From: Planctomycetota bacterium
Lineage (GTDB): Bacteria; Planctomycetota; Planctomycetia; Pirellulales; Lacipirellulaceae
Length of the DNA: 32,161 nucleotides
Direction: 5' to 3'
NCBI GenBank assembly: GCA_039190745.1
Contig: JBCCXZ010000045.1
Location: 1-32,161, forward strand
Position numbers and translations under genes: made by a program. Under the pieces are notes generated by a model, which saw only the letters and a program-made list of their open reading frames with translations, did not search any database and was not told where the DNA came from. Positions 3,319 to 26,186 of this stretch are shown here, piece after piece (position 1 is the stretch's first letter; every line of letters starts with the position of its first letter).

Positions 3319-3354
3319 CGCCCGCCAGACCTCCCCACCCCGCAGGAACCGGTC

Positions 3355-3840
3355 ATGAACCCCTCCAGCAGCCAGTACAACACCTCGCGCATCCTCACCG
3401 CCTCGCAGCCCGCGCTGCAGATGATGCTGCTCGACGGAGCCCTCCGCAACGGCCGGCAGGCCCTCAACAGCTGGGCCGAAGACAACTGGAGCGAGGTGGA
3501 TGCCCTGCTGGACAAGACCATGCAGATCCTCGAAGAGCTCATTCAGGCCGTTGCGGGCGGCCAGTCCGAGCTGTCGGCCCAGTTCGAAGAGCAGTACGTC
3601 TTCGCCTACCGCTCGCTCACTTCGTGCCGCATCAACCGCGACAAAGACCAACTCCTGCGGACGCTGGACCTGCTGAGCTACCAGCGGCAGACCTGGAAGC
3701 TCGCCTGCGAACGCCTGCAGGCCGAAGCCCCCGCCGAATCGACCCAGGCCGAAGACGAACCCGCCGGCCCCAAGCCGACGGCCGCACCACACTTCTCAAC
3801 AGACGTGATGCCCTCCGCGGGCCTGTCGATCGAGGCCTAG
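3355..3840 (+). CDS. fliS: flagellar export chaperone FliS
   Basis: Y..SRILTASQPALQMMLLDGALR matches FliS N-terminus; helical; W near the C-terminus; directly after fliD. Confidence 0.85.
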   Translation: MNPSSSQYNTSRILTASQPALQMMLLDGALRNGRQALNSWAEDNWSEVDALLDKTMQILEELIQAVAGGQSELSAQFEEQYVFAYRSLTSCRINRDKDQLLRTLDLLSYQRQTWKLACERLQAEAPAESTQAEDEPAGPKPTAAPHFSTDVMPSAGLSIEA

Positions 3841-4013
3841 CCCGGTCCGCGGTGAAGTCGCCCGGCGACTCTCGGTTTCTATAGTAGGCAGGCGTGCGCG
3901 GCAAATTGACCAGCCCGCACGGCCGGCTCTATGATGCCCGTCTTCGGATGCCCGGATCCGGCGGGCACCCGCCAGACCATCCCGAGTAGTGCATAGCCAG
4001 GAGCCGCCGTACC

Positions 4014-4883
4014 GTGAGTGTTGCCGAGAAGCAGTTGATCCGCGTCGGGCACAGCCCCGACCCCGACGACGCCTTCATGTTCCACGCGCTGGCGAACGAT
4101 TGCATCGAAACCGGCGGCTTCCGGTTCGAGCACGAGCTGGTCGACATCGAGACCCTCAACCAGCGGGCTTTTGAAGGCGAGCTCGAACTGACCGCCGTCA
4201 GCATCCACGCCTACGCATTCCTGCGAGATAAATATTTGCTCTGCAGCTGCGGCGCCAGCATGGGCGACGGCTACGGCCCGATGGTCGTCTCGAAAGAAGG
4301 CGGCGATACCGCTTCGCTCGAAGGCAAAGTAATCGCCGTCCCCGGCAAGCTGACGAGCGCCTTCCTCGGCCTGCAGCTGTGCCTCAACCGGGAGTTCGAG
4401 CACGTCCTCGTGCCGTTCGACGAGATCATCCCCGCCGTCGTCGCGGGAGAGTACAACGGCCAGAAGGTCGACGCCGGCCTCATCATCCACGAAGGCCAGC
4501 TCACCTACGGCGACCAACAGCTCCAGCTCATCGTCGATCTGGGCGTCTGGTGGAAAGAGCTCACCGGCCTCCCGCTCCCGCTCGGCGCGAACGCCATCCG
4601 CCGCGACCTCGGGCCCGAGGTGATCGACGAGGTGCAAACGCTGCTCCACCAGAGCATCGATTACGGCCTCAAGAACCGCCAAGAAGCCCTCGACTACGCC
4701 CTGCAGTACGGCCGCGATTTGGATAACTCCAAGGCGGACAAGTTCGTCGGCATGTACGTCAACGACTGGACGCTCGATTTTGGCCCCCGCGGCCGCGAAG
4801 CTGTTAAGCTATTCCTGAGGAAGGGCCATGAACAGGGATTCCTTCCCGAACTGGTCGCCCCCGAGTTCGTCGACCTGAAGTAG
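4014..4883 (+). CDS. mqnD: 1,4-dihydroxy-6-naphthoate synthase (futalosine menaquinone pathway)
   Basis: GHSPDPDDAFMFHAL, DIETLN, GxGYGP, IIHEG, LPLPLG, MYVN motifs; GTG start. Confidence 0.93.
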   Translation: MSVAEKQLIRVGHSPDPDDAFMFHALANDCIETGGFRFEHELVDIETLNQRAFEGELELTAVSIHAYAFLRDKYLLCSCGASMGDGYGPMVVSKEGGDTASLEGKVIAVPGKLTSAFLGLQLCLNREFEHVLVPFDEIIPAVVAGEYNGQKVDAGLIIHEGQLTYGDQQLQLIVDLGVWWKELTGLPLPLGANAIRRDLGPEVIDEVQTLLHQSIDYGLKNRQEALDYALQYGRDLDNSKADKFVGMYVNDWTLDFGPRGREAVKLFLRKGHEQGFLPELVAPEFVDLK

Positions 4884-5619: not shown

Positions 5620-7791
5620 TCAAGAGGTAGCGTGAGTTAAGAGTTCACTAGTGATATATTTGAGACTCTTTTCTTCACCGAGCAAGGGGCCCTGGCCGTA
5701 CTTGCAACCAATCGCCTTTAGGACTTCCAAGTGAGAGTGATCGGACACGCCCGAGTAGATAAGCCCTGCCTGGAGTCCCTCGGCGAGCGTTGCGACGACC
5801 TCCAGCTCCGCCGCAGGCTCGAAAGGCTGCTTTGCTCCTTGTGTCCTGCGCTCTCCGATCCTTAGGTATCCCTGCCTGGCAAGAGCCAGCAAAGAGAGAG
5901 ACACCCGCCCCAACTCGCAACCAGATAGCGCTATCGAGAAGCCTTCTTCGCCGAGCGCCGAAATCGTCGCGTGTTCGTCTTCGCTGAGCTGATCCATCGA
6001 GTGTTGCCAGAAGCTGAGGATGATGTCACGCGGGCTGATCCCCTCACTGCTGACAACCTCGGCAAGCGCCTCAGCACTGGCTTTACGGTCACTCCGCCAC
6101 GAGGCGTTCTCGAGTAAGAGCTTAACGCTGTCGAAGCGATCATCCTCGCGTCTCAAGAGGGCTAGTTGTGAGCAAGCCATCCGCAGGGTCTTCAACTCAA
6201 CAGCGGCCTCGATGCCGTTGTCCGAGGCAACTTCTGCAATCACACCGTGGCGGGCCTCATCGTACCGAGGGTGCCGCCACGCCAGACGGCACTCGAACGC
6301 TAAAAGGTCCCCGGACTGGACGTTTACAATCGGTGAACATAGGGTCTGGAGTGGTGAATCGGTCTGAGGCGTCTCTGCGGAGTCCACTAGAGCGTTGAGG
6401 TCTTGCAAGAGCGCGGATCGCATCTCGTCATCCTGCCGCATCTCCGGACTGAACGCGCGGTACCCGTTCTTTCCTTCTCGCTTAGCCTCGTACATTGCTC
6501 GGTCGGCCAATAGTAAGAGGTCTTCTACGGAACGGGCCTGCGGTGTAGGCAGAGTGATGCCGACGCTCGCGGACGGATTGATGTAGTGCCGTTCCAGGAG
6601 CAGGGCCGGTTTGGAGATGACGTCCACCAGCCGCGCGGCGATCGTAGACGCGGCGCGTTGGGAGTCGACGTCCTCGACGAGCACGGCGAACTCGTCTCCA
6701 CCGATTCGAGCGACAACGGAGTCTGCCTGCCGCACCGAAGATTCCAACGCCCGCGCTATGAGGACAAGCAGCTCGTCACCGGCTGCGTGACCGTAGGTAT
6801 CGTTTACACCCTTGAATCCATCGACATCGATAATAGCGACGGCAAAGGGGCGATCGGGATTCCGCAGGTACTGCTGGAGGCGGTGCGAAACTCTTTCTAG
6901 GAACAGTGCCCGATTAGGAAGCCCCGTCAACGCGTCCGCGGATTTACCCTCGGTAACGTCGGTGAGGGAGCCGGCCATGCGGACAGCTTTGCTGTCGGAG
7001 AAGACCGCTTTGCCCCGGCAGAGCATCCAGCGGTACTCGCCCAACTCGTGATGCATACGGAGTTCGACCTCAAAGCACTCTGTTTGTCCGGCCAGATGTG
7101 ATGTGAGGGCGTTGTGTACGCGTTTGCGGTCATTATCGTGAACCCGGGAAAACCAGTGGTTAGGCGAGTCTAAGTGCTCCAGCTCAGGCAGCCCAAGCAT
7201 CGCTTGCCAACGCGGCGAGAAGTAGACTGTTTCTTTGAGGATGTCCCAGTCCCAGATGCCGTCGTTCGTGCCCCGAACCGCAAGCGTGTACCGCTGCTGG
7301 CTCTCGGAGAGTTCCTGTTGAATCTGCTGGAGCCGCAGGTGAGTGCTCAGCCGCACCATCGAAGTTTCGGCATCGAACGGTTTAGTAATGTAATCGTTGG
7401 CGCCAGCCCTGAAGGCGGCGACGATGCTTTCGCGGTCGTCGTCTGCGGTCACCATCACCACAGGCAGTTCGGCTTCGCTAAAAGATCGCCGGACCTCGCG
7501 GAGCACCTCGAACCCATCCATGCCCGGCATAGAAACATCGAGAAGAACAACCTCGAAGCGGCGTTGCAGCAGGAGCTCTAAGGCGCCCAAACCGTCGTCC
7601 GCGGTATCGAAAGAGGCCCCTAGCTGACTGCAGATCTTACCCAGGATCAACTTGGATACTTCCTCGTCATCAACGATAAGCACACGCGACGAGCAAAACT
7701 GGCTGGGGTCTCGGAGCGCATCTTTCTCAGAGAGCCCGCTAGCCAGATTCATTAGGCATGGTTGTGTCTTCTGGTTTTCCCCGGACATCAT
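5620..7791 (-). CDS. response-regulator diguanylate cyclase: REC-PAS-GGDEF-degenerate EAL
   Basis: REC (VLIVDD, LLDVSMPGMDG, DYITKP); PAS (NDGIWDWD...YRWMLCRG); DALTGLPNR; intact GGDEF at 6688-6702; EAL-like C-terminus with mutated motifs; start chosen at ATG 7791 after a G-rich RBS-like run. Confidence 0.9.
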   Translation of the reverse strand: MMSGENQKTQPCLMNLASGLSEKDALRDPSQFCSSRVLIVDDEEVSKLILGKICSQLGASFDTADDGLGALELLLQRRFEVVLLDVSMPGMDGFEVLREVRRSFSEAELPVVMVTADDDRESIVAAFRAGANDYITKPFDAETSMVRLSTHLRLQQIQQELSESQQRYTLAVRGTNDGIWDWDILKETVYFSPRWQAMLGLPELEHLDSPNHWFSRVHDNDRKRVHNALTSHLAGQTECFEVELRMHHELGEYRWMLCRGKAVFSDSKAVRMAGSLTDVTEGKSADALTGLPNRALFLERVSHRLQQYLRNPDRPFAVAIIDVDGFKGVNDTYGHAAGDELLVLIARALESSVRQADSVVARIGGDEFAVLVEDVDSQRAASTIAARLVDVISKPALLLERHYINPSASVGITLPTPQARSVEDLLLLADRAMYEAKREGKNGYRAFSPEMRQDDEMRSALLQDLNALVDSAETPQTDSPLQTLCSPIVNVQSGDLLAFECRLAWRHPRYDEARHGVIAEVASDNGIEAAVELKTLRMACSQLALLRREDDRFDSVKLLLENASWRSDRKASAEALAEVVSSEGISPRDIILSFWQHSMDQLSEDEHATISALGEEGFSIALSGCELGRVSLSLLALARQGYLRIGERRTQGAKQPFEPAAELEVVATLAEGLQAGLIYSGVSDHSHLEVLKAIGCKYGQGPLLGEEKSLKYITSELLTHATS

Positions 7792-7887
7792 CGCCCCCCT
7801 TAGGAAATCAGTTGCTTCGGCGCTCGGTGTCTGGCCTCCTGGACCGTACACCTCTTGGCGTAGCTGCTACTGATCGTGTGTCTTTCG

Positions 7888-10800
7888 TTACGCATGAACT
7901 GGGTCGGGGAGTGTCTGGTCTGTCGCCGAGGGCGGGTCGCTGTTCCCGGCTGCCTTGACAAGCGCCTGGGCAAGCACCTCGGGCTGGACCGGCTTCGTCA
8001 GGTGGCCGTCCATCCCTGCGCCGTTGCATTTCTGTGTGAACTGCGGGCTGACATGGGCCGAGAGTGCGAATACGGGGGTTTTCGGACGCCCCTCTTCTTG
8101 CTCCAAAGCCCGGATTTGTTCTGTTGCGGCGAAGCCGTCGAGTTTGGGCATTTCGATGTCCATGAGCACTATGTCGAAGCGGCCTTGCCGGTAGGCGTCG
8201 ACCGCTTGCTGGCCATCGTCGGCTGTTTCCGCTTCGTGCCCCATTAAGCCGAGGATGCCCTTGGCAACTTCTTGGTTGACCGGGCTGTCGTCCGCGACAA
8301 GCACACGCAGCGGCCGGCATGCTGCAGAGGCTAGCGAGACCGGCCGAGCCTTGGCTCGGCGACTTGTTGCGCCCGTTGCCGAAAGCAGGGCGTCGACCAA
8401 CTCCTCTCGCTTCGCTGGCTTCATGACTGTGTTCCGGATGCCTAGCAGACGGCAGCACTCAACGATCTCGACGTTGCCGGCGGGCAGAACAGCAACGAGC
8501 GGGCGGTCCGCCTCGCTTCGTTTCCTCAGCCGTTCTCGCAGGCTGTCGATATCGGATAGATCGCTTGCGGCAACGTCCACGACAGCGGCGTCGACTGGTT
8601 CGAACTCTTCACCGGCGGGATGGCTGTCGGGGTGCAGGCCTCCGTCTCTGATTCCGACTGTTGAGGAAGCCCCGCAATCGGCGAGCAAGTCTTCGTAAGC
8701 TGCGAGCAAGACCGGGTCTTTCGCGACGATCTCGACGCGGAGGCCGTCTGCGGTTGCGGGCTGCTCCTCGGCTGCCGCCCCGTCGTCGGTGGGCGTCGCG
8801 CGTTTCAGCGGGATGTCGAGGTGGAAGGTGCTGCCCTGGCCTTCTTCGCTTTCTAGCCAGATCTTTCCACCCATCAACTCGGTCAGTTGCATCGAGATGG
8901 CAAGCCCCAGACCGGTGCCGCCATACCGTCTTGTGGTGGAGCTGTCTTCCTGGCGGAACGCATCGAAGATGACGCCCACCTTGTCCGCCGCGATGCCAAT
9001 GCCCGTGTCTTCCACCGTGAAGTGCAGCACGACGCCCCCGCCGCTCTCTTCGCCCTTCTCGATTCTGACGAGCACGTGCCCTTCCGCAGTGAACTTCACG
9101 GCATTGCTGACAAGGTTGACGACGATCTGGCGTATGCAGTTTGGGTCGCCTACCAGCCGCTCAGGCACTTCTGGAGCGATCGAACAGATCAGTTCTATCC
9201 CCTTCCCAAACGCCGGCACGGCAAGCAACCGGGCCGCGTCGATAACCACTTCGCGTAGACTGAAAGAGATAGCCTCTAGCTCCATCTTCCCCGCTTCGAT
9301 CTTCGACAGGTCGAGAATATCGTTGAGCAGGTTTAGAAGGGCGCCACCGGACTGTTTTACGGTTGTGAGATAATTCCGCTGTTGGTCGTTAAGGGGCGTG
9401 TTCAGGACCAGTTCGGTCATGCCCAGAACACCGTTCATCGGCGTTCGGATCTCGTGACTCATTGTGGCCAGGAACCGACTTTTTGCCTCATTAGCTTCCT
9501 CCGCGGCCTGTTTGGCCGTTTGCAGCTCCTGCTGGGCGTCGCGAAGCTCATTGGCTTTGCGTTCCAGCAAGTCGTTCGAGACGGCCAATTCTTCGGCCCT
9601 GGTTTCCGCCGCGGCGGTGCGGTCGGCGACGCGTTGCTCGAGTGTCGTGTTCAGATCTTGTAGCTTTGCGAAGCCCTCGGCGTTTTCGAGCGCGGCGCCA
9701 GCTATTGCCGCGATGAAATCGGCTAGCCTCTGCTCGTCGGCCCCGAATAGCCCGCTGATACGTGAGTGCACGACACACAAGATCGAAACGACGCGGCCAC
9801 GCACAAGTATGGGGACGCAGAGTTCCGAAGAGTTGGTCTCCAAGGTTGCATCCGTGGCCTGTGCGCGATCGAGGACCGTCGAGCGTTTGGCCTCGATAGC
9901 CTCTTCAGCAAGCGGGGGTGAGACTTGAAACGATTCGCCCCGGGCCTGCGCATCGGACTCGACGAGTTGGCCTTCGTTGTCGACCGACCAAACGTAGCAA
10001 CGCTCACCCCGGAGCAGGCGGAGAGCCGCTTCTTGAGCCTGCTGGTGAATCACATTTGGGTCGAGAGAAGACGCGATGCTTCGGCCAGTGTCGAGTACTG
10101 TGTCGAACCGGTCGATCAGCGAGAGGCTTAGCTTCTCATTGGAATCGACGGCTTCGTTGCGTTCGGCGGCGGCCCCTAACTCGGCGAGGATTATGCTCGC
10201 GCGGCGGGCGTAGTCCTCGAACCCGTCCCAGCCGGCTTCGGCGGCCACGCGGTGCGCTTCGAGCAGCGTTTCTGCGGCTTGCAGGCGCTCACCGAGCTTG
10301 TTGGCGTGGGACAGGCTTTTACCAAAGTAGTACCTGGCTCGCCGGCTCTCGCCGCGCATCGCCGAGACTAAGGCCAGCTCTCGGTAGGCTTGCGGGAGGT
10401 CGTTGCGGCAGATGAATCCACTCCGGATTGCGGAGCGCGCCGAGCGGGCCGCCTCCCGCAAGCAATGGAGACGTCGGTCCGGAACCGCGCGGGTGTCTTT
10501 TTGGGCCGCCAACCTGAACGCAGTTGCGCTCCACGCGTACGCCGGGAGCGTGTAGGCGTTCTTTACACCTGCGCCCGCTGCCGCGTCGAGTGCCCGCTCA
10601 AACTTCTGTGCGGCGGCCTCGAGCTGAGATTCGGCAATATGGCAAATGCCCTGGGCGAGGTAGACCTGACACGCGCCCTGTGCGTCGCTCCTCTCCCGCC
10701 TCGCCTCGAGTTCCATGACCTGGGCCGGGATACGGCCGGAGGAAGCCCGGGCCCAGACATCGAGGATGATGCCGGAGGCTTGTTCGTCGCCGGTTTCGAG

Positions 10801-13800
10801 CCCCGACTGTCGATTGAGCTTGGCCTCGGTGATCGCACCTTCGAGGTCGCCAAGGTAGTGGAGTGACGCCGCGATTTGGTAGCGGGCCATGTGGATCTGC
10901 CAGTAGTCGCCGAGCTTTTCGAGGACACGGATGGCCGACCGGCAGGATTCAATGCATTCTTGGAACCGCGACGCTGCGAACAGGGTGATGCCCAGGAAGA
11001 CTAGAGCCTGTCCTTTGCCCCAGGTGTCGTCGAGTTCCTCACGCATCCGGATGGCCTTCTTCGCGTAACGAACCCCTCGGCTGAAGTAGCCGATGATGCT
11101 CATCCCGGGGCCGTGCTCGGAGTAGGTCAGCGCGAGCTCTTCACTCGGGAGGTACCGCTCCCCCATGTTCAAGTTGCGGAAGTGGACCCAGAGCATCTGC
11201 ATCTGCTTCCTGGAGTACCAGCACCCGTGGGCGAGGCAACTGAGCAGCCGCATGGTGAGCCGTTCCGATTCGTCTGGGCGACGCTTGATGCGGTGGACGA
11301 ACAGCCTGGGGCACCACGTGTGCAGCACCTGGACGAAGCACTCCCAGCAAAGGAAGGCGAACAGGCTTGCGGTGTTGTTCGGTACCGTCTGACGCTGGAG
11401 CCGGAGCGCGTGCTCAAAGTTCTGTATCGCGTGCCCCATGTTGCCGCGTTTGAAGTGCAGCTCGCCGATCTTCCCGCGGATCGCGGCCAGCGGGCGCCCG
11501 GACTCTGCGAGCAGAGACGCTTCTTCGAACCACTTGCCGGCGTCTTCGTAGCGGCCGCGCAGCATGAGCACGTCGCCGAGCCCTTCTAGGATTTGCAGTC
11601 GATTATCGCGGGACGGCACCCCTCGCAGAGCGATGTGGTATTGCTGCTCCGCGATCTCGAGGGCGAACTGCGATCGGGCGCTCTCGGCGGCTTTAACCGC
11701 GAACTCGAAGGCGTCTTCGGGGCGGTCGCCTGCGTCGAAGTGGTACGCGATATCCGAAGCACGGTGCGGGTCTTCTTTCAGAAGGTGGCGTGCGGCGTTG
11801 AGGTGGTGGTCTCTGAGTGTCTGCTCGGGGAGGCTCTGGAGCACTGCCGAGCGGATCTTATCGTGAAAGAAAACGCACTCCGCCCCATCGGGCCGAACCC
11901 AAACAAGTTGCCGTTCCCTCGCGCGTTCGAGCGCATTGATCACTTCCTCGGCCGAGAGGCCGGCGAGCTGTTGAGCAACGTGCAATTCGAAGGTTTTCCC
12001 TAACACAGCACCGACGGCGAGCAGTCTTGTAGTTTCGGCAGGGAGCAACCCCAGGCGACGCGCGAGGACCGAACCGGCTTGATCGGACGAGCCCGCGTCA
12101 TCGAGAGCGGCGGGGTCTACCTCCCAACCGGAGTCTACGGGGCGGATCGCTTCGCACTCTACGAGGCCGCGCAGCACGGCGGACGCCATGAACGGGCTTC
12201 CGCCGGCAAGCCGTACTACCGTTTCAGCGGCTTCCTCTGGAAGCCCGCCGGCCATCGAGTCGGCGAGTTGGCGCACCTCGTCATCGCGGAGGGAAAGCAG
12301 CTTGATCGACGCGGTGGTTTTGACCTCTCGGAGCAGGTGGTCCTGCGGGATCTCGTCGGAGCGGAACGCGAGCACCAGCAGAAGTGAAGGTTCATCTACT
12401 CCTTCGGAGGCCTGCTTCGAGGCGATCCGTTTCAGCAGCCGGATAGTCAGCTCATCAGCCCATTGGCAGTCGTCGAGCAGGATGAGTGCCGGTTTGTCGA
12501 GCTTACCCAGCGCTTCCAGGAGCGCAACGAGCGCTTCGATAGTACGCGCCTCAGCCGTTTCATCGGGTGCGGAAACCGTAGAGTTCTCGACGCCGATGGC
12601 TGGCGCCAAGGCCGGGAGCGCTTCGACGATGGGGCCGATCTTGTCTCCCAAGATCCAGATCAACCGCCCGCGAAGCTCCGGGCGTCCGGAGACCTCGGAC
12701 ACAACCCCTTCGACCACGCCGTCGAGGAGCCGGTACGGCCTTGAGGAAACGTCGCTGGCGCCGTTCCCTCGGAAGACGCGGTATCCTTTCCTGGACGCCA
12801 CCCTGAGCGACTCTGCGAGGAGCCGAGACTTGCCGGCGCCGCTCTCGCCTTCGACGGACGCCACCACTTTGGCTCCTTCGGAGGCGTTTTGCATCGCTTC
12901 TTCGAGCGTCGCCAGATGCTCGGTTCGAGCAACGAAGGCAGGCTCGACTAGCGACGCCCTCTTGTCGGTCGCCCCGAGCACTATCGCGGGATCGGCGTCG
13001 CCGTTCTCGATGCTCGCAGATATCTTCTCGAGGTCCGCAAGAGCGGCATTGGCAGACTGGTACCGATCGCGGGGGTCTTTCTGCAGCAGACGCTGGACGA
13101 AGTCCTCTAGCACAACGGGCGCCGACAGACCCGGTCGAGACATCTCGGGGACCGGTTCGGTCATGTGTTTGAAGAGTACGGTGCCGACCGAATCCCCCGC
13201 GAACGGTGTCCGACCCGTGAGGCAGTAGTAGAGTAGGACGCCGAAAGAATAGAGGTCTGATGCGGGGGAGAGCCCTTCGTCGATAGAGCCCGCCTGCTCT
13301 GGCGAGGAGTAGAGCGCGACTTCTAGCGGCTGAAGTTTCAGCGGCGTGTCTGGCTCGACCGCGAGACACAGACCGTAGTCGGTCAGCACGACCCTCGCGT
13401 CGGCTTTCGTCGACAGGTCGACGAAGACATTCTCGGGACGCAGATTGCGGTGGAGAACCAGCAAGGCGTGCAGATCCCGGAGCCCGGCGAGGACCCCGCG
13501 CCCAACCGCAAGTGTGTTTTCGAGCGTCAGTGGACCGTGTCCCTGAAGCGGGGCGCCGTGAGCCGCTTGGCTCGCGAGCCAGCAATCTCCATCGGCCCGG
13601 AACACGCCAAGGCAGTTGCTGAAGTGGTTGCTCTCGGCCTTGGCTAATAGTCTTGCCTCGTGCCCCAGCCTCATCTCGACCGATGCGGAAATCGAATCGT
13701 CCGGTAAACGCTTGAGGACAATTGGCTTACCGGACTGCGTGTCCGAACCGTGGTAGTAAGACGCGCCCTGTCGGCTCCCGGCGAGTGCGGTGAGCGCGAA

Positions 13801-13878
13801 CCGTTCAGCTACCATGCGGGGCTCGAAGCGCGCACCGTGGTTGTCGTCCGCTCTGGGAGTATCGGACTCGGAAACCAT
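7888..13878 (-). CDS. soluble hybrid sensor: Ser/Thr kinase-like domain - AAA/STAND-type ATPase - TPR-like helices - GAF - HisKA - HATPase - pseudo-REC - REC (~2000 aa)
   Basis: IVLK, HRNLRPEN, DYG, SPEQ, SDLYSFG; Walker A GESGAGKS, Walker B LILLDD, GGSPF; FHDKIR; GAF (LCVPILVRGRVV); H-box MSHEIRTP, N-box NAVKFT, DTGIG, GGTGLGL; REC LVADD/DIEMP/KP. Start uncertain (13878 or 13815; ORF open to 14091). Confidence 0.9.
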   Translation of the reverse strand: MVSESDTPRADDNHGARFEPRMVAERFALTALAGSRQGASYYHGSDTQSGKPIVLKRLPDDSISASVEMRLGHEARLLAKAESNHFSNCLGVFRADGDCWLASQAAHGAPLQGHGPLTLENTLAVGRGVLAGLRDLHALLVLHRNLRPENVFVDLSTKADARVVLTDYGLCLAVEPDTPLKLQPLEVALYSSPEQAGSIDEGLSPASDLYSFGVLLYYCLTGRTPFAGDSVGTVLFKHMTEPVPEMSRPGLSAPVVLEDFVQRLLQKDPRDRYQSANAALADLEKISASIENGDADPAIVLGATDKRASLVEPAFVARTEHLATLEEAMQNASEGAKVVASVEGESGAGKSRLLAESLRVASRKGYRVFRGNGASDVSSRPYRLLDGVVEGVVSEVSGRPELRGRLIWILGDKIGPIVEALPALAPAIGVENSTVSAPDETAEARTIEALVALLEALGKLDKPALILLDDCQWADELTIRLLKRIASKQASEGVDEPSLLLVLAFRSDEIPQDHLLREVKTTASIKLLSLRDDEVRQLADSMAGGLPEEAAETVVRLAGGSPFMASAVLRGLVECEAIRPVDSGWEVDPAALDDAGSSDQAGSVLARRLGLLPAETTRLLAVGAVLGKTFELHVAQQLAGLSAEEVINALERARERQLVWVRPDGAECVFFHDKIRSAVLQSLPEQTLRDHHLNAARHLLKEDPHRASDIAYHFDAGDRPEDAFEFAVKAAESARSQFALEIAEQQYHIALRGVPSRDNRLQILEGLGDVLMLRGRYEDAGKWFEEASLLAESGRPLAAIRGKIGELHFKRGNMGHAIQNFEHALRLQRQTVPNNTASLFAFLCWECFVQVLHTWCPRLFVHRIKRRPDESERLTMRLLSCLAHGCWYSRKQMQMLWVHFRNLNMGERYLPSEELALTYSEHGPGMSIIGYFSRGVRYAKKAIRMREELDDTWGKGQALVFLGITLFAASRFQECIESCRSAIRVLEKLGDYWQIHMARYQIAASLHYLGDLEGAITEAKLNRQSGLETGDEQASGIILDVWARASSGRIPAQVMELEARRERSDAQGACQVYLAQGICHIAESQLEAAAQKFERALDAAAGAGVKNAYTLPAYAWSATAFRLAAQKDTRAVPDRRLHCLREAARSARSAIRSGFICRNDLPQAYRELALVSAMRGESRRARYYFGKSLSHANKLGERLQAAETLLEAHRVAAEAGWDGFEDYARRASIILAELGAAAERNEAVDSNEKLSLSLIDRFDTVLDTGRSIASSLDPNVIHQQAQEAALRLLRGERCYVWSVDNEGQLVESDAQARGESFQVSPPLAEEAIEAKRSTVLDRAQATDATLETNSSELCVPILVRGRVVSILCVVHSRISGLFGADEQRLADFIAAIAGAALENAEGFAKLQDLNTTLEQRVADRTAAAETRAEELAVSNDLLERKANELRDAQQELQTAKQAAEEANEAKSRFLATMSHEIRTPMNGVLGMTELVLNTPLNDQQRNYLTTVKQSGGALLNLLNDILDLSKIEAGKMELEAISFSLREVVIDAARLLAVPAFGKGIELICSIAPEVPERLVGDPNCIRQIVVNLVSNAVKFTAEGHVLVRIEKGEESGGGVVLHFTVEDTGIGIAADKVGVIFDAFRQEDSSTTRRYGGTGLGLAISMQLTELMGGKIWLESEEGQGSTFHLDIPLKRATPTDDGAAAEEQPATADGLRVEIVAKDPVLLAAYEDLLADCGASSTVGIRDGGLHPDSHPAGEEFEPVDAAVVDVAASDLSDIDSLRERLRKRSEADRPLVAVLPAGNVEIVECCRLLGIRNTVMKPAKREELVDALLSATGATSRRAKARPVSLASAACRPLRVLVADDSPVNQEVAKGILGLMGHEAETADDGQQAVDAYRQGRFDIVLMDIEMPKLDGFAATEQIRALEQEEGRPKTPVFALSAHVSPQFTQKCNGAGMDGHLTKPVQPEVLAQALVKAAGNSDPPSATDQTLPDPVHA

Positions 13879-14312
13879 GCCAAGTTTCTGTGTCGAGTTA
13901 CAGGCGCCGCAGCACTCAGCGACGGTGCGGTTTGACTCAACAAAACCATACGTTGTCACAGGATACGGACAGGCTTCGGTTAACCGAATTGTGGAGGGCC
14001 CTGCTCTCTCACTGCACTCCTCGAGCCTGGGAACGCCGTTGCAATCCTGATTGTTGTTGCAATCCGCAACACACTCAGAGAGGCCCGACACGGTGTTGTC
14101 TTGAAAAGGTCTGATGTGTGTGACGGACGTGCAGTCGGGTGGTTGGGTTGCCCCCCTAAAAAACCCCGGAAATTCCTTGGAACCCGTGCGACGAATGCGC
14201 TAGGATGTGCTCCCGACCAGACACCTCCATTGCAGCGGGATAGCAAAGGATGGTCCTTACGAAATGCGTTAAGCATTCCCCATCAATTCCGCACGTATCA
14301 GGTCTGTGAACA

Positions 14313-15848
14313 ATGAGAGATGTAGAAAGCCGCGCGGGGCTTACGTCGCCGCTTTTCGAGATCACATGGGAGCAAGACGTCGCGACGCGTATGGACCCGG
14401 CGCTGGTCACGTCTTTCCTACGCGAACAGGTGCCGGTCCTTGAGTTTGTGGATTGGCAGCTCACCTCCGTGAGCCCCGGCTCGGTCGAGGCTGTGCTCCC
14501 GCTCAATCCTCCTTCGACCAACCAGCACTTTACACATCAGGCGGCGTTGATCGTGCTGAGCGCTGATTACACGGGCGGCTCGGCGTTAGCAACACTGCTC
14601 TGGGGCTGGCCGGTCGTGGGGGTCCACCCGGTTGACTCTCCGGACTCCGTTTCGATGTGGCTGTTGAAGGCCGAGATGAAGTACCTGAGGCCTAGCACCG
14701 GAAACCTCACCGTGCGCGCCGAGGTCGACGAATCGCGACGCGAGAAGATTCAGAAGCGGTTCCTCAAGGGGAAACCGGTCATCGAGTCCCTGACGATGCA
14801 GTTCATGAATGACGACGAGATTGTAGCCGAAGGGACGTGCACCTACTTCCTGAGACAGTCCACGGCGCTGCGGAGCACCGGCGTCGATCCCGATAAAGTC
14901 AACACGCTCTATGCGCTGAAGCTAACCTCATCGGCAGAGATGATCGCCGGCGTCCGCGCGTTAGAGAGCGGCGGTCTGTTCGAGGACCCGTACGCGGAGA
15001 GCATGGCCGGCCAGCACGGCATGGCGGTCGCAGCACGCTTCTGTGAGCGGACCCCTCAACTCGGCAACATGGTGGCGGCGAGGACCAAGCACCTCGACGA
15101 CGTGATGACGAACTTCACAGCCGCCGGGGGAAGGGACATCGTAAACATCGGGGTCGGCTGGGACATGCGTCCCTTCCGTCTCAACCTTCCTGAAGGGACG
15201 CGCTTCTATGAACTTGATTTCCCAACCACGCTCAACGAACGGGAGTCCCGAATAGAAGCTCTCGGAATTCACACTCCCGAGGGGATCGAGCGGGTGTCGA
15301 TCCCTATCGACCTCCGGACGATGAACCTTCCCGAGACGGTTCGGGGCGCGGTGCCGGGCGACCGGCCTCTGTTGCTCGTCTGGGAGGGCGTGTCGATGTA
15401 CTTCGAAGAACAGGACGTCAAAGAAGTCTTGGTGAATATGCGGTCGCTCCTGAGCCACGAGGGCAGCCTGCTGTGGGTCGACATGGTCGACCGCGAGCCG
15501 GTGGTCAACCCAGCAGCGTTCCCAGGGTCGGTTCAGGACTTTATGCGGGGGATGCAGATCCTCGGAGAGCCTTTTATCTTCGGCAGCGACACGCCGGTCG
15601 AGTTTATCGAAGACTGTGGCTTGCGGTGCCTGGAGGTGGTGACGTCCGACGTGTACTTCCCGGATTCGGCGGAACCGGTCTACTCGATCTACCAGTTCTG
15701 CACCGTCGCCGGGGGAGTGACTCAGGACCAGCCCAAGACGTTCAAGCGTACCGACGTCCGGCGTCATCCGGGAAGCGTACCGCAGCCGCACTTCAACGGG
15801 TTTGCAGACGCGCCCGTCACGGCGGTGAAGCGAGAGCCCTCGAAGTAG
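14313..15848 (+). CDS. fusion of an N-terminal hotdog-fold (YiiD_C/PaaI-like thioesterase) domain and a C-terminal LCM/YktD/TcmP-type SAM-dependent methyltransferase
   Basis: N-half: VEAVLPLNPPSTNQHFTHQAALIVLSADYTGG...AEMKYLRP (hotdog pattern). C-half: IAGVRALES..LFEDPYA, ARTKHLDD, IVNIGVGWDMRPFRL, YELDFP, IDL, VWEGVSMYF (LCM-family motifs). Alternative start ATG 14391. Confidence 0.82.
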   Translation: MRDVESRAGLTSPLFEITWEQDVATRMDPALVTSFLREQVPVLEFVDWQLTSVSPGSVEAVLPLNPPSTNQHFTHQAALIVLSADYTGGSALATLLWGWPVVGVHPVDSPDSVSMWLLKAEMKYLRPSTGNLTVRAEVDESRREKIQKRFLKGKPVIESLTMQFMNDDEIVAEGTCTYFLRQSTALRSTGVDPDKVNTLYALKLTSSAEMIAGVRALESGGLFEDPYAESMAGQHGMAVAARFCERTPQLGNMVAARTKHLDDVMTNFTAAGGRDIVNIGVGWDMRPFRLNLPEGTRFYELDFPTTLNERESRIEALGIHTPEGIERVSIPIDLRTMNLPETVRGAVPGDRPLLLVWEGVSMYFEEQDVKEVLVNMRSLLSHEGSLLWVDMVDREPVVNPAAFPGSVQDFMRGMQILGEPFIFGSDTPVEFIEDCGLRCLEVVTSDVYFPDSAEPVYSIYQFCTVAGGVTQDQPKTFKRTDVRRHPGSVPQPHFNGFADAPVTAVKREPSK

Positions 15849-15904: not shown

Positions 15905-17188
15905 TCATCGTGCGCCGAAGGTGCGCGTGAATCCGAAAGCGAGAGCGTGGGTGCGGTTGCGGTGGATGCTCTGGTCGAAGTCGCCGCCTACGAAGGCGCT
16001 TGTCCCGACTTCTACGGTTGGCCCGAACGAGTACATGTAAGCGGTGCTGACCTGCCAGCCCCGCCAGTCGAACCCGTACCCCAGCGAGAAGGCGTGCTCG
16101 AGTGCGCCCGGGATCCAGGGCGTGATCGTATCGTAGGGGATCGGGCTCTTGTGGTGGACGTAGCCCGCCCGGACGATATGCCCGCAGCCCAGGCGGTGCT
16201 CGACCCCGACGCGTGTCGAGACGGTGTCGACCCAATTGAGAGGGAAACGCTCGACAACGTTCGGCGGGTAGCCCGCATTGGTTGGCGAGCTGAGGTTGAT
16301 CTCTAGCGTATCGAACGCGTCCGACCAGTTGTACCAGATGACGTCGGTCGCAATGACGGTGTTCCGCGTGAGCTGATGACGAAAGCCGCCGCCGAAGGAC
16401 CTCGGCCACGTTACTTTTGTTTCCGCGTTGTAGTACGTCTGCCCTAGAGGCGAAACGAGTCCGACCTCACCATCGGCGTCGACCTCAACCTGCGAGAGGT
16501 AAGAGAACCCAACGGTTGTGCGATCAGTCAGCCGGCAACTGAGCCCCGCAGACCAGGTGATGCCGACGCCGTCGACCCCCAGGTCGAGAAGCGAAGGCAG
16601 CCCCGTCGCCGGGGCGCTCTGCAGCGTGTAAGGCCCCTCGAGGTTCACAAACGACAACCCCGGACCGAGCGTGCCGCCGATGGAGAGGAAATCATAATCT
16701 TCGGGCGTGTACGAGGCGCCGATGAGAACTTTGGTGAGCGACCCGAACGACTCGTACACCTGAGGCCCGCCAAACGGTACGGGGCCTTCGAGGTTGTAGA
16801 TCGAGCCAAATCCATTCGGCGTGTAGACGCCTACGCCCAAAGCCCACTGGTCGCTCAACCGCTCGACGTAGCCGATCTCGGGGATGGGGTACATCTGGTT
16901 CTGAGAGCGTTGTTGGGTGTTGTCGGCGTCCCCGTAGTCGAAGTGCGTAAACAGGAACGTGCCGCCGAGCTGCAGCATGGCGTCGCCTTCGATCTGCCCC
17001 ATCGCGGCGGCGTTGTCGTGCAGGATCGAAGTGTTGTCGGCGAAGCCGAGGTTTGTTCCGCCCCGCCCGATGCTCACAGCAGAGACGCCGTCGAGCGTGA
17101 TCCCGTCGGCGTGCAGGAGTTTCTCTGAGCAGAACGGCCCTGCCGCCAGGCAGAACGCGGTGAGAATGGTTCGCGTTGTAATCCGCAC
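15905..17188 (-). CDS. FadL/OmpP1-family outer-membrane channel for hydrophobic compounds
   Basis: Signal peptide (GTG 17188; RITTRTILTAFCLAAG...LHA|DG); SIGRGGT...DNTSILHDNAAAM hatch-like segment; GVGVYTPNGFG; alternating beta strands; aromatic C-terminal strand (AFGFTRTF). Confidence 0.85.
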   Translation of the reverse strand: MRITTRTILTAFCLAAGPFCSEKLLHADGITLDGVSAVSIGRGGTNLGFADNTSILHDNAAAMGQIEGDAMLQLGGTFLFTHFDYGDADNTQQRSQNQMYPIPEIGYVERLSDQWALGVGVYTPNGFGSIYNLEGPVPFGGPQVYESFGSLTKVLIGASYTPEDYDFLSIGGTLGPGLSFVNLEGPYTLQSAPATGLPSLLDLGVDGVGITWSAGLSCRLTDRTTVGFSYLSQVEVDADGEVGLVSPLGQTYYNAETKVTWPRSFGGGFRHQLTRNTVIATDVIWYNWSDAFDTLEINLSSPTNAGYPPNVVERFPLNWVDTVSTRVGVEHRLGCGHIVRAGYVHHKSPIPYDTITPWIPGALEHAFSLGYGFDWRGWQVSTAYMYSFGPTVEVGTSAFVGGDFDQSIHRNRTHALAFGFTRTFGAR

Positions 17189-17341
17189 AGTTTGCCCCCG
17201 CTGACACTGGCCGGCGCGTTCAGATTCGTGGTTACAGACCTTGCAACCTGTACAAAAGAAATCGGCTTTTCCTGCTTCCAGAGTGAGGCAGTACCCTGCT
17301 GCCAAGGCTACGGCTTGGCCTCGGCAGGAAAGCTATTCCGA

Positions 17342-18418
17342 TTAGGCAGGTTCGAGCACCGCTTCCGCGACACTAGCCTGAGCGCCAGCAAGTACCGCCG
17401 GCGGTCCTTCCCGGCCGGGGGCCGCCTGCAGCTTCTTAGAAACCGCCACGAATTCGCTTTCTCGAGCGAGAAAGGCTTCGACGACGCGGTCGTCGAAATG
17501 ACTGCCCGCCCCGTCCAGCACGATTTCCTTGGCCTTTTCGTGGCTGAACCGGTCTTTGTAGATACGCTTCGAGCTCAAAGCGTCATAGACATCTGCTAAA
17601 GCTGTGATGCGCCCGCACAACGGGATCTCTTCGCCCGACAAGCCGAAGGGGTATCCTTGGCCGTTTACTTTTTCGTGATGAGAGAACGCAATGTCTTTCG
17701 CTAGCTGCAGATACCTGGCGTTTGGGCTTGTCTCCAACGCTGTTCGGAGCGTTTCCCCGCCGATGGTAGTGTGCTGCTTCATGACCTCGAACTCCTGCGT
17801 GGTCAGCTTGCCCGGCTTGAGCAGCACACTGTCAGGTATCCCGACCTTGCCGATGTCGTGCAGAGGTGCAGTGAGGTAGATCATCTGGACATAATCGCCG
17901 TCGATCTCTTCCGCGAACTCGGGCCATCCGGAGAGTTCTTCGGCGAGGATACGGCTGTACTCTCGCATCCTCTCGAGGTGTAAACCGGTTTCGATATCTC
18001 GAGACTCTGTGAGCTTTGCCAGCGTGAACAGCAGCGTGTCGCGCGTTTCAAGTGACAAGACGCGTTCACCTGTTCGAAGTCTAACCCGTAGCTCTTCGGG
18101 CTCAAAAGGTTTGACCAGGAAGTCGTCTGCGCCCGCCCTCAGGCCTCCCACCAAGTGGTCCATGTCCTTGTGGGAGGTAAGCAGAATGAAGTAGATGTAA
18201 CCACCCCACTGCCGTTTTCGGATCTGGCGACAAAGATCGTCACCGTGCATGCCGGGCATGCTCCAATCGGAGATCACGAGGTTGTACTCACCGGTCCGGA
18301 TGAACTCGAATCCTTCAATCCCGTCGGTTGCGCAGGTGACCTCGTAGCCGTAGTGGTGGAGAGCGCCTTTGAGCAGTTCCAGCGAAACAAGGTCGTCGTC
18401 GATCACAAGCACCTTCAT
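17342..18418 (-). CDS. REC-HD-GYP c-di-GMP phosphodiesterase response regulator (RpfG-like)
   Basis: REC (VLVIDDD, SDWSMPG, DDFLVKP); ETGLHLER, LHDIGKVGIPD, HHEKVNGQGYP, ADVYDAL. Confidence 0.93.
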   Translation of the reverse strand: MKVLVIDDDLVSLELLKGALHHYGYEVTCATDGIEGFEFIRTGEYNLVISDWSMPGMHGDDLCRQIRKRQWGGYIYFILLTSHKDMDHLVGGLRAGADDFLVKPFEPEELRVRLRTGERVLSLETRDTLLFTLAKLTESRDIETGLHLERMREYSRILAEELSGWPEFAEEIDGDYVQMIYLTAPLHDIGKVGIPDSVLLKPGKLTTQEFEVMKQHTTIGGETLRTALETSPNARYLQLAKDIAFSHHEKVNGQGYPFGLSGEEIPLCGRITALADVYDALSSKRIYKDRFSHEKAKEIVLDGAGSHFDDRVVEAFLARESEFVAVSKKLQAAPGREGPPAVLAGAQASVAEAVLEPA

Positions 18419-18471: not shown

Positions 18472-18870
18472 TCAGCTAACCTGCTCAGGCGCGAGCGGTT
18501 CGTCTTGTTCTCGACCGCCTGTGCCCATTAAATCCGACAACTGATCCCAACCTTCCCGTAGCCCGCTAACGCCCTCCCGAGAAGCCGGTGCGTCCATCGC
18601 CTTGGAGGCCTGGCAGAGGTCTTCTGCGATTTGGCTCAATCCGTCGGCTGAGGCGTTGGCAAACGCACCCTTCAGTCGATGGGCGATACCGTACACCTGT
18701 TGGAAGTCCTCGTTCTGGACAGCCGCTTCGATTGCCTCAATGTCTGGTTCACAGCGCTCGCTGAGGATATCCAATATGCGGCTGGCGAATTCAAGATTCC
18801 CGAAGCAACGATCCAACAGTGTGTCGACGTTGACTGCGCCCGAGTATCTGTCTAGGTCGTCGTGCAGCAT
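18472..18870 (-). CDS. stand-alone Hpt phosphotransfer protein
   Basis: Helical 132 aa with AHRLKGAFAN (H-x-L-K-G Hpt motif); first gene of the Hpt-HD-GYP-FadL run. Confidence 0.88.
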   Translation of the reverse strand: MLHDDLDRYSGAVNVDTLLDRCFGNLEFASRILDILSERCEPDIEAIEAAVQNEDFQQVYGIAHRLKGAFANASADGLSQIAEDLCQASKAMDAPASREGVSGLREGWDQLSDLMGTGGREQDEPLAPEQVS

Positions 18871-23221: not shown

Positions 23222-23381
23222 TAGGAACGCCAGGAAGCGTTAACCGCTGCGGAGTGACGGCGGCGGGCCAGGCAGGAAGCGAATCACGAGTAGATTGAGA
23301 TGAATCCATTGCGCGGTACCATCTGAGACGAGGTATCTATAGCATCGTCAGGCTCAAGTCACGACAGGGTTGTCCGGCTCG

Positions 23382-26186
23382 ATGGAAGATCAAGACACAC
23401 CGCCAGACAACGAACCTACGGCATCGTCGGTACCTAGCTGGCAGCGGCGTTTTGAAGGCCGAGAGGCTGAGCTGCATCGCCTCAAAGATGCGTGGGTACG
23501 AGTTCTCCAGGAGCGGCAGCCCATCATCCTGCCAATCGTCGGCGCCACCGGCGTTGGCAAGACCCGGCTTGTCCAACAGTTCTACGCTTGGCTCAGCACC
23601 GAGTATGACGACGCCGAGCCCCAGGGTCACTGGCCCGACTCGCTGAATATCGGCCGCTCTCTCGACTACACGCCCGACCTGCACGACTGTCAGCCGCTCA
23701 ATCTCCTGAACAAGCCCATGCCTTTCCTCTGGTGGGGCGCGCGCTGGCACGACCCGACCGAGCGCAACCGGCCGGCGGCTTCCGGCGAAGGATTCGAAGG
23801 CTCCTGGCCGCTGCTCAAGGCCCACGCCGCCGTCCGCCTCACCCTCCAGGAAGCGCGCGACCAACGCCGCCAAAACGCATCCGCCGCCGCCGAGAGTATT
23901 GTCCGCACCGCCCTCGCCGCGGTCCCGTGGGCAGAACTGCCGCTCGCGGTAGCCGACGCCGGCCAGAGCATCTACAAGCTCCTCAGCGGCGTCGCAGCAG
24001 AGCGGCGGCTCAGCGCCGAAGCCCTCCAGCGGGTGCAGGTCGCCCTCACCGCGCTCGACCAGCAGTTCGAGCAGAGCGTAGCATCCGCTTTCAACCTTTT
24101 CCTGCGGCCCAATCACAACGAATCGCCCCCCGCCCCGGCTGTGCTTTTCCTGGACGACGCCCAATGGGCCCGACCGTCCGCTGTTCGCCTGTTGGGGCAG
24201 CTCGCCCGGGGCCCCGTGGCAACCGGAGCCGCAAGCCCCGACCAGTCCCCGCCCCCCTGGCCGGTCCTGATCCTGATGACCTACTGGCCCGATTGCTGGA
24301 ACGAGCACCAGCCGCCTGCCGCATCCAACGCCGAGCTACAAAACCCGCGCGATTTACTCTCGGCCCTCGAAGACGGCGGCCCCGTCCGGGTCCAGGCCCC
24401 GATGAGACTCGACGCCTTTGGGGTGGATCCACGCGCCGGCTCGGAGCTGCGCCCGATGATCCGAGAGGCCTTGCCGGGCCTGACTGCAGAACAGCTCGCC
24501 CGCCTCGACGCGGTCGCGGGCGGCAACCCCCGCCTCTGTGTGGAACTCCTGAAGCTCATCACCAGCGACCAGCGCATGTTCGTCGGCTTCGACAACCAGA
24601 ACCGCCTCGAAGAGAGTCAGCTCGCCCGGCTGGAATCTTTCCCCGCTGGTACGGAGCTCTACCGCGTGATCCAGGCGCGGCTCAACGAGATGCCGACGAT
24701 CCGCGAGGCGCTCGCCGCGGCTACACTCCAGGGGCCTCGTTTCCTTACCGAGTTGGTTGCGGAGGTCGCAGAAGACCTCCCTCTCCCTCCCGGCGTCGAC
24801 GAGAAGCCCGCCGCTGTCCGAGCTGGGCTCTTGCGAGCGATCGACCCCGAAGCCCTCGCCGAGCAGGTCGGCCCGACCACCTGCCGCTTCCCCGAAGCCA
24901 TCTACTTCAGGGTTTGCAACGACTACCTCCGCGAGTTTCCAGGCCTCCGCGACGCCCTGGCCCGGGCGGTCCGTGGGCGTCTCGCGGCGTGGGTCCGCGA
25001 CCGGCGCGAACAGGATCTGTCGACCGAAGAACGGCTCGTCTTTCTCGGCATCGCCGCCGACACCCTCGACCCCGGCCTGGCCGGGGACGACGAACACGCC
25101 GAAGCTTGGCAGGACGCCTTGATCCGCCTGCTCGCCGAATTGCACGCCCAGCAGGCTCCGGCCGATCTTCGCAACGATCGGCTTGCCCAGCTCTTTACTC
25201 TCCGCCCGCCAGAACAACATGCCGCGGATTGGGTGGCTCGCTACGGCCCTGCCGGCATCGACCCGGTCTTCCGGCTTGCCTTCTATCTTCGGCCTGACGA
25301 CGCCCTGGTTATTGCCGAAGCCGTCCGCCGACACCTCCAGACCGGCGCCCCGCCGACCGACGCCCAATCACTGCGGAGCGTGTCGATCTCGCTCGAAAGG
25401 GTAGGCGACGCGGTGCGGAAGCAAGACCCTGAGCGTGCGCTGCGACTCTACGAGGAGTCGATGGAGATCCGCCGCGGGATCGTCGAGCGTTTCGGCAAGG
25501 ACGCCCAGTCGCTGCGCGGCGTGGCGGCCTCTCTCTACAGGGTGGGCGACGCGGTGCGGCAGCAAGACCGTGAGCGTGCGCTGCGGCTTTACAAGGAGTC
25601 GATGGAGATCCACCGAGGGATCATCGAGCGTTTCGGCGAGCACGCCCAATCGCTGCGGGACGTGTCGGTCTCGCTCAACAAGGTGGGCGACGCGGTGCGG
25701 CAGCAAGACCCCGAGCGTGCGCTGCGGCTCTACGAGGAGTCGATGGCGATCCGCCGCGGGATCGTGGAGCGTTTCGGCGAGGACGCCCAATCGCTGCGGG
25801 ACGTGTCGATCTCGCTCGAAAGGTTGGGCCACGCGGTGCGGCAGCAAGACGCCGAGCGTGCGCTGCGGCTCTACGAGGAGTCGATGATGATCTGCCGCTG
25901 GATCGTGGAACGTTTCGGCGAGGACACCCAATCGCTGTTCGACCTAGCCGTGAGCTTGGTTCGCATTGGGGAGATAGAAGCAACGCGGCGGCGGGCGTGC
26001 TGGGGTGAGGCGGCCACTTGGACACGGGCTTTGATCGACCGCTACGGAGGTCGGCCCGACTGGGTTGCGGGCATGCAGGCGCTTCTCAGCTTGCGGCCGG
26101 AGTGGATGGACGCGGCGGACGAGCCGGGTTGGCGAGAGTGGTGGCGGGGCGTAACGGGCGAACCCGACTTGCCGCCGATACGGTAG
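23382..26186 (+). CDS. NLR-like (STAND/AAA_16) ATPase with C-terminal TPR repeats
   Basis: FEGREAEL, Walker A GATGVGKT, Walker B VLFLDDAQW, GGNP motif; four 47-aa TPR-like repeats near the C-terminus. Confidence 0.85.
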   Translation: MEDQDTPPDNEPTASSVPSWQRRFEGREAELHRLKDAWVRVLQERQPIILPIVGATGVGKTRLVQQFYAWLSTEYDDAEPQGHWPDSLNIGRSLDYTPDLHDCQPLNLLNKPMPFLWWGARWHDPTERNRPAASGEGFEGSWPLLKAHAAVRLTLQEARDQRRQNASAAAESIVRTALAAVPWAELPLAVADAGQSIYKLLSGVAAERRLSAEALQRVQVALTALDQQFEQSVASAFNLFLRPNHNESPPAPAVLFLDDAQWARPSAVRLLGQLARGPVATGAASPDQSPPPWPVLILMTYWPDCWNEHQPPAASNAELQNPRDLLSALEDGGPVRVQAPMRLDAFGVDPRAGSELRPMIREALPGLTAEQLARLDAVAGGNPRLCVELLKLITSDQRMFVGFDNQNRLEESQLARLESFPAGTELYRVIQARLNEMPTIREALAAATLQGPRFLTELVAEVAEDLPLPPGVDEKPAAVRAGLLRAIDPEALAEQVGPTTCRFPEAIYFRVCNDYLREFPGLRDALARAVRGRLAAWVRDRREQDLSTEERLVFLGIAADTLDPGLAGDDEHAEAWQDALIRLLAELHAQQAPADLRNDRLAQLFTLRPPEQHAADWVARYGPAGIDPVFRLAFYLRPDDALVIAEAVRRHLQTGAPPTDAQSLRSVSISLERVGDAVRKQDPERALRLYEESMEIRRGIVERFGKDAQSLRGVAASLYRVGDAVRQQDRERALRLYKESMEIHRGIIERFGEHAQSLRDVSVSLNKVGDAVRQQDPERALRLYEESMAIRRGIVERFGEDAQSLRDVSISLERLGHAVRQQDAERALRLYEESMMICRWIVERFGEDTQSLFDLAVSLVRIGEIEATRRRACWGEAATWTRALIDRYGGRPDWVAGMQALLSLRPEWMDAADEPGWREWWRGVTGEPDLPPIR
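25359..25922 (+). repeat. intragenic tandem repeat, 4 x 141 bp (47 aa), plus a divergent partial fifth unit
   Basis: Units start at 25359, 25500, 25641 and 25782 (partial at 25923); each contains ACGCGGTGCGG...CAAGAC...GAGCGTGCGCTGCG...AGGAGTCGATG...CGTTTCGGC. Confidence 0.95.

Follow-up and report, generated by a model that had tools for sequence, protein, structure and literature searches.

The window, a 32,161-nucleotide stretch of planctomycete DNA (contig JBCCXZ010000045.1), carries a gene for a 511 aa protein (14313..15848, + strand; single copy in the assembly) in which a hotdog domain is fused to an LCM-type methyltransferase. With about even confidence, we propose from its sequence and gene context that this fusion is a signal synthase, whose hotdog domain would free an acid from a thioester for the methyltransferase to esterify. 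Slightly more tentatively, we place it in a form of methyl-ester quorum sensing in Pirellulales, with an NLR-like STAND-TPR kinase fed by FadL and a cyclic di-GMP (c-di-GMP) output; the synthase would be either a PhcB-like enzyme or this putative thioesterase-methyltransferase, which would also serve CqsS-type receptors in other phyla. Methyl-ester signalling is already known from the Phc system; the non-homologous synthase architecture and the receptor type would be new to it. In the open-licence literature searched, this receptor type is not described for methyl-ester signals, and no paper was found that links planctomycetes to signalling of this kind.

Architecture and conserved residues of the fusion protein

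A structure model of the protein (predicted local distance difference test score [pLDDT] 89.8) joins a MadB/PaaI-like hotdog to an LCM/TIGR00027 methyltransferase. Together with profile matches and conserved motifs, it confirms the domain fusion named in the original prediction, an earlier reading of this DNA, and structure comparison finds the hotdog fold in the N-terminal domain as that reading supposed. The hotdog domain (residues 12-186; 14346..14870, + strand) is YiiD_C/DUF4442-like; behind the hotdog helix it has an insert, GWPVVGVHP, that is specific to the family. It is followed by the S-adenosylmethionine (SAM)-dependent methyltransferase domain (residues 198-468; 14904..15716, + strand) and a poorly conserved tail (15723..15845, + strand), in which model confidence is low from residue 495. 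Both halves are conserved, since mean conservation per column among 121 close relatives is similar (0.83 for hotdog residues 61-130 and 0.80 for the methyltransferase core, residues 206-300) and both N70 and the acid at position 85 are invariant in a set of 52 diverse members.

The methyltransferase domain scores above cut-off with both PF04072 (LCM; 100.9 bits vs 22.3) and TIGR00027 (106.6 bits vs 93.55). It has an LCMT-type fold with intact SAM-binding motifs (Arg, GxGxD, ExD, and EG): in 52 diverse family members, R257, D284, E358, and G359 are each invariant, while G280 is found in 49 and G282 in 51. The complete set of LCM-family motifs described earlier is thus present. LCMT1/PPM1 are both structural and profile matches, with an identity to the LCM family of about 15-22% in structural alignments. 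Fold and SAM motifs are common to LCMT1/PPM1, TYW4, the mycobacterial ML2640 and Rv0731c, and the fusion, but the fusion alone adds an N-terminal hotdog and a signalling context. TcmP is presumably a further relative in this family.

Among the same 52 members, N70 is invariant and position 85 is Asp in 50 and Glu in two; these residues bound the predicted hotdog active-site segment (14520..14567, + strand), assigned from residue conservation and the PaaI register (PMC516016). Also well conserved are W116 (51/52), T74 and H105 (48/52 each), and Q76 (47/52), while position 72 is His in 30 and Asn in 13. His is not among the four commonest residues at position 76. The atypical active-site motif with a retained acid that had been noticed previously is therefore real: QAA at 76-78 replaces HGG, and D/E85 occurs in 52 of 52.

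The residue mappings that follow were made by motif spacing rather than superposed coordinates. PaaI members have the motif HGG-x-IF-x-LAD, with the Asp proposed to be catalytic (PMC516016), and the QAA-L-IV-L-SAD of the fusion is in register with it. SaPaaI uses Gln32 and Glu47 (PMC13114782); their spacing of 15 residues equals that of N70 and D85. MadB requires Asn45, assisted by His47 and Thr49, and its Phe51 is completely conserved (PMC8666670); Asn43 is present in 97% of Mad proteins. N70, H72, and T74 fit Asn45, His47, and Thr49, but the equivalents of Phe51 and Asn43 are not kept in the fusion hotdog, being Gln76 and Ser68, respectively. Because Q76 replaces the Mad Phe51 and QAA replaces HGG, the domain belongs neither with the canonical PaaI proteins nor with the Mad proteins, but it retains the thioesterase-type Asn/Asp pair, with an acid nine residues past the HGG His position (D85) and an upstream Asn/Gln (N70). 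From the MadA/MadB malonyl-acyl carrier protein (ACP) decarboxylases it also differs by its insert and an extra helix, the invariant acid 85, and the methyltransferase partner; from the PaaI/4HBT-II thioesterases it differs by QAA for HGG and the lack of a PF03061 match. Of the three Pfam families suggested for the protein, then, PF04072 was borne out, whereas PF09500 (YiiD_C) gave 21.6-25.9 bits for the hotdog, below its cut-off of 27, and PF03061 was not matched by the window protein.

A whole-protein search returned 342 matches. The 120 listed have 52-85% identity over 87-100% of the query and include Aeoliella, Pirellulimonas, Thermoguttaceae, and further planctomycetes; the closest named relative among the matches listed is a Lacipirellulaceae assembly (85%). 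The hotdog-domain profile gave 195 matches among 1.84 billion representative proteins. When 83 of the 150 listed were scanned with Pfam, 60 contained LCM, two were PilZ-hotdog fusions, and 21 were short, whether as fragments, as proteins that apparently stand alone, or as DUF4442 proteins of the ordinary kind. Searching with a distant fusion member led to Chlorobiaceae and one Methylobacterium protein, and Atlas clusters of the family are mostly from Planctomycetota and Chlorobiota. Sixty of 401 Pirellulales genomes match the fusion protein: 24 over both domains (the window genome included, and one frameshifted) and the other 36 in the LCM part only.

Some members of the hotdog subfamily have other architectures. 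P0168 and P0194 (469 and 306 aa) are fused to PilZ, and P0182, P0185, P0186, and P0195 (188-198 aa) are apparent stand-alone proteins; these are possibly a c-di-GMP-linked form without the methyltransferase. P0167 (892 aa) has an unannotated 440-aa N-terminal region ahead of its hotdog-LCM unit.

Gene neighbourhood and alternation with a second methyltransferase

Divergent from the fusion gene is a gene for a hybrid kinase of approximately 2,000 aa (7888..14091, - strand; true start probably 13878 or 13815), a candidate receptor with the order Ser/Thr pseudokinase, STAND/AAA ATPase, TPR, GAF, HisKA, HATPase, REC. It is called cytoplasmic because no membrane span appears in its hydropathy profile. 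In all 22 full-length orthologues the Ser/Thr domain is predicted to be a pseudokinase, as the HRD Asp is missing in 19 and the DFG Asp in the remaining three; the His box is present in every one of 21 full-length copies. TPR residues 1010-1109 are the most conserved stretch on the sensor side and a candidate ligand site. Convergent with the fusion gene are genes for a FadL/OmpP1/TodX outer-membrane channel (15905..17305, - strand; probable start GTG at 17188), a REC-HD-GYP-type response regulator with a predicted c-di-GMP phosphodiesterase output (17342..18418, - strand), and an Hpt phosphotransfer protein (18472..18870, - strand). A REC-PAS-GGDEF-EAL protein encoded directly downstream of the kinase (5620..7851, - strand) seems accessory, with a close orthologue at three of 25 other loci.

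Of the 24 fusion genomes, all but one have the kinase: it lies at most 6 kb from the fusion in 22 and is divided from it by a contig end in the 23rd, and the pair is usually accompanied by FadL, Hpt, and the HD-GYP regulator. Pooling of genome and metagenome loci gave 109 loci in 77 groups at 90% identity, of which 54 are well flanked (at least 3 kb upstream and at least 2 kb downstream); this set leans towards relatives of the window because the best 80 of 129 metagenome loci were taken. A STAND kinase and FadL are found in 38 of the well-flanked groups, a STAND kinase only in six, a CqsS-type kinase only in five, a CqsS-type kinase and FadL in two, and neither kinase in three (totals: STAND kinase 44, CqsS-type 7, FadL 40). 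The original prediction had allowed for a general enzyme forming fatty acid methyl esters (FAME); since a sensor kinase adjoins the fusion in 51 of these 54 groups, such a housekeeping role is unsupported.

The second kinase type was seen in 16 metagenome loci, where a same-strand kinase follows the fusion with a gap of -20 to +15 nt in 13. The membrane domain of these kinases matches that of a Vibrio campbellii kinase adjoining an alpha-hydroxyketone synthase (E 2.6e-21), and the fusion occupies the position that an autoinducer synthase has in Ralstonia sp. and Cupriavidus records. As in CqsA/CqsS and LqsA/LqsS, the synthase candidate directly precedes the CqsS-type kinase, but the fusion system is without a pyridoxal phosphate-dependent synthase: cqsA was not found in the fetched loci of CqsS-coupled fusions. 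The latter are distant family members and include some from Chlorobiaceae, which are known carriers of cqsAS. In the window genome, neither CqsA above cut-off nor a six-helix CqsS-type membrane domain was detected.

The kinase is more widespread than the fusion, its TPR region being found in 93 of the 401 Pirellulales genomes. At 19 kinase loci from genomes lacking the fusion, Hpt (16), HD-GYP (16), and FadL (13) persist, and in 14 of the 19 the kinase adjoins a class I methyltransferase of another kind that carries the motif KPxGYAGDY; in nine of these the methyltransferase gene is divergent from the 5' end of the kinase, as the fusion gene is. With one such protein as query, 57 of the 401 genomes gave a match at E 1e-15, and no fusion genome was among them. 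A profile of this second family (A5) found it in 66 of 70 fusion-less kinase genomes, with four lacking it; in the 66 carriers it lies within 6 kb of the kinase in 51 and elsewhere in 15 (13 on another contig). Conversely, the hotdog profile matched none of 71 fusion-less genomes and all five positive controls. Exclusion between the two enzymes applies to the slot, not to the whole genome. The two families are not detectably homologous by profile: A5 misses the fusion proteins and the other methyltransferase profile, A4, misses a Paraburkholderia member of the second family.

That member, a methyltransferase of 468 aa encoded on a plasmid of Paraburkholderia graminis, was reached with a second-family query, matches A5 (E 3.3e-34), and contains the KPxGYAGDY motif. 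It is followed in its operon by a 445-aa kinase and two receivers. It has Arg at position 22, as does PhcB, in which Arg22 is conserved among Ralstonia, Cupriavidus, and Paraburkholderia homologues (PMC6989110). The phcB-phcS start distance computed from mutation coordinates in the same source is about 1,417 nt, close to the length of 468 codons; the kinase has its His at position 233, and PhcS at 230 (PMC11960443). By length, operon layout, and Arg22, we call the second family PhcB-like, without taking its members for proven orthologues of PhcB. The product of PhcB is methyl 3-hydroxymyristate or methyl 3-hydroxypalmitate (PMC6989110, PMC11960443), so that the Phc system of Ralstonia (PhcB, PhcS/R/Q) likewise sets a SAM-dependent enzyme beside a histidine kinase and uses a fatty-acid methyl ester as its signal; the PhcB-like family occupies the fusion's slot in other Pirellulales. 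The fusion differs in having a hotdog and in its partners: a STAND-TPR kinase that is cytoplasmic, FadL, Hpt, and HD-GYP take the place of PhcS/R/Q and PhcA.

Proposed pathway and competing explanations

Because the fusion alternates with a PhcB-like enzyme beside the same kinase and FadL, it would likely make a fatty-acid methyl ester signal. In the scheme we favour, whose chemistry, export, import, and ligand-binding steps are all inferred, a carboxylate of fatty-acid type would be freed by the hotdog domain from the thioester of acyl-ACP or acyl-coenzyme A (acyl-CoA) and turned into its methyl ester by the methyltransferase. This hydrophobic ester would leave the cell, enter neighbours through FadL, and be read by the cytoplasmic STAND-TPR hybrid kinase, from which the signal would pass by Hpt to the REC-HD-GYP protein and change c-di-GMP. 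FadL points to a hydrophobic molecule, and in Sinorhizobium it imports signals that are long-chain acyl-homoserine lactones (PMC9938287). Some neighbouring genes also fit a fatty-acid substrate: in L095 and L097 the next gene downstream of the fusion encodes a fatty-acid desaturase, and L117 and L129 have FabH-like genes close to the fusion. The signal-synthase option raised at the outset thus has contextual support from two receptor types, FadL, and the exchange with a PhcB-like methyltransferase.

Several points weigh against this interpretation. The top structural matches of the hotdog domain are MadB decarboxylases, none being a proven thioesterase, and the HGG motif of PaaI is replaced; for the earlier suggestion that thioester hydrolysis precedes methylation, the retained residues fit while these nearest folds do not. 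The case for carboxyl methylation rests on LCMT1/PPM1/TYW4, as the nearest solved bacterial relatives, ML2640 and Rv0731c, are titled putative. The reference P. graminis protein is not a named PhcB, and PhcQ R154 and PhcS L161 are unmatched by number in its operon (V and F). Several second-family profile matches are the profile's own rows, one of which is probably a wrong-strand frame; a distant second-family member lies far from the kinase in four of the 24 fusion genomes, and in metagenome locus L117 enzymes of both families are close together. No kinase is nearby in three of the 54 well-flanked groups and in genome G670. Finally, the Pirellulales genomes are related, so that counts exaggerate independence.

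The alternative that survives best, although we think it improbable, is a signal synthase with other hotdog chemistry: Mad-like malonyl-thioester decarboxylation, dehydration, isomerisation, or mere binding and presentation of acyl-ACP, in which case the product would not be the methyl ester of a plain released fatty acid. The MadB structural matches suit it, but the substitution of Gln76 for Phe51 and Ser68 for Asn43 does not, and the invariant acid 85 is expected of class II thioesterases. More doubtful still is that no signal is sent, and that a hydrophobic acid from other organisms or the environment, imported by FadL, is either esterified for the kinase to read or inactivated. FadL is an import channel, the receptor is cytoplasmic, and the module is without a dedicated exporter; a thioester-handling domain, however, indicates an internal acyl-ACP or acyl-CoA source, and beside CqsS-type kinases the fusion is placed as an autoinducer synthase would be. 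Least probable, to the point where we give it little credence, is the kinase-modifying branch of the original prediction, a ligand-gated methyltransferase acting on the kinase or another module protein as LCMT1 acts on PP2A: the LCMT1/PPM1 match, tight linkage to the kinase gene, and the existence of non-catalytic hotdog sensors (FapR) speak for it, but a common target would be needed and C-termini are unconserved in 23 kinases, 20 HD-GYP proteins (a Leu-Val end in six), and 21 Hpt proteins, although an internal Glu or Asp might be methylated instead, while two unrelated enzymes for one receptor and two unrelated sensor types for one enzyme argue for a diffusible methyl-ester product.

Roughly one in four of the Pirellulales genomes searched has the module, with the cultured genera Aeoliella and Pirellulimonas among them, so a methyl-ester signal could be searched for directly. 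If the proposal is correct, a bacterial TIGR00027-type methyltransferase fusion would for the first time have a substrate class assigned to it, the large STAND-TPR hybrid kinases would have a lead to their ligand, CqsS-type receptors would gain a second chemistry, and oleochemical engineering could use a single polypeptide that leads from acyl-ACP to methyl esters.

Additional loci and flanking genes

Two genomes have disrupted modules, through assembly error or decay: in G546 (L012/L063) frameshifts break each of the genes for the fusion, the kinase, and the HD-GYP protein into pieces, and in G678 (L006/L060) the kinase gene is in two pieces by a frameshift. L117 (327-7577) is a small biosynthetic cluster with no kinase in view; after the fusion gene come those for a pair of PhcB-like methyltransferases, for a fused E1 dehydrogenase, and for a lipoyl-FabH protein. 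Structure neighbours in the Atlas of the KPxGYAGDY family (L154-L173) include PilZ- and cyclic nucleotide (cNMP)-fused forms from Myxococcota and others.

On Paraburkholderia caribensis plasmid NZ_CP013105.1 (L150:3298-7044), the gene directly ahead of a CqsS-type hybrid kinase encodes a FabH-like ketosynthase instead of CqsA; this enzyme is a candidate third synthase for such receptors. On Dyella and Rhodanobacter plasmids (L151 and L152), a CqsS-type kinase and a receiver are next to genes for a DEAD/DEAH helicase, a WGR-domain protein, and a thermonuclease, and no nearby gene is annotated as a synthase.

Elsewhere in the window, fliD, fliS, and a menaquinone-biosynthesis (VitK2_biosynth) gene are at the left end (214-4883), and a phage-integrase family gene is near the right end (29614-30873). 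The gene at 23370-26186 (+ strand) codes for another, unrelated AAA ATPase-TPR (STAND-like) protein, 938 aa long, and converges on those for a glutamate-cysteine ligase (GCS2) and an M20 peptidase.
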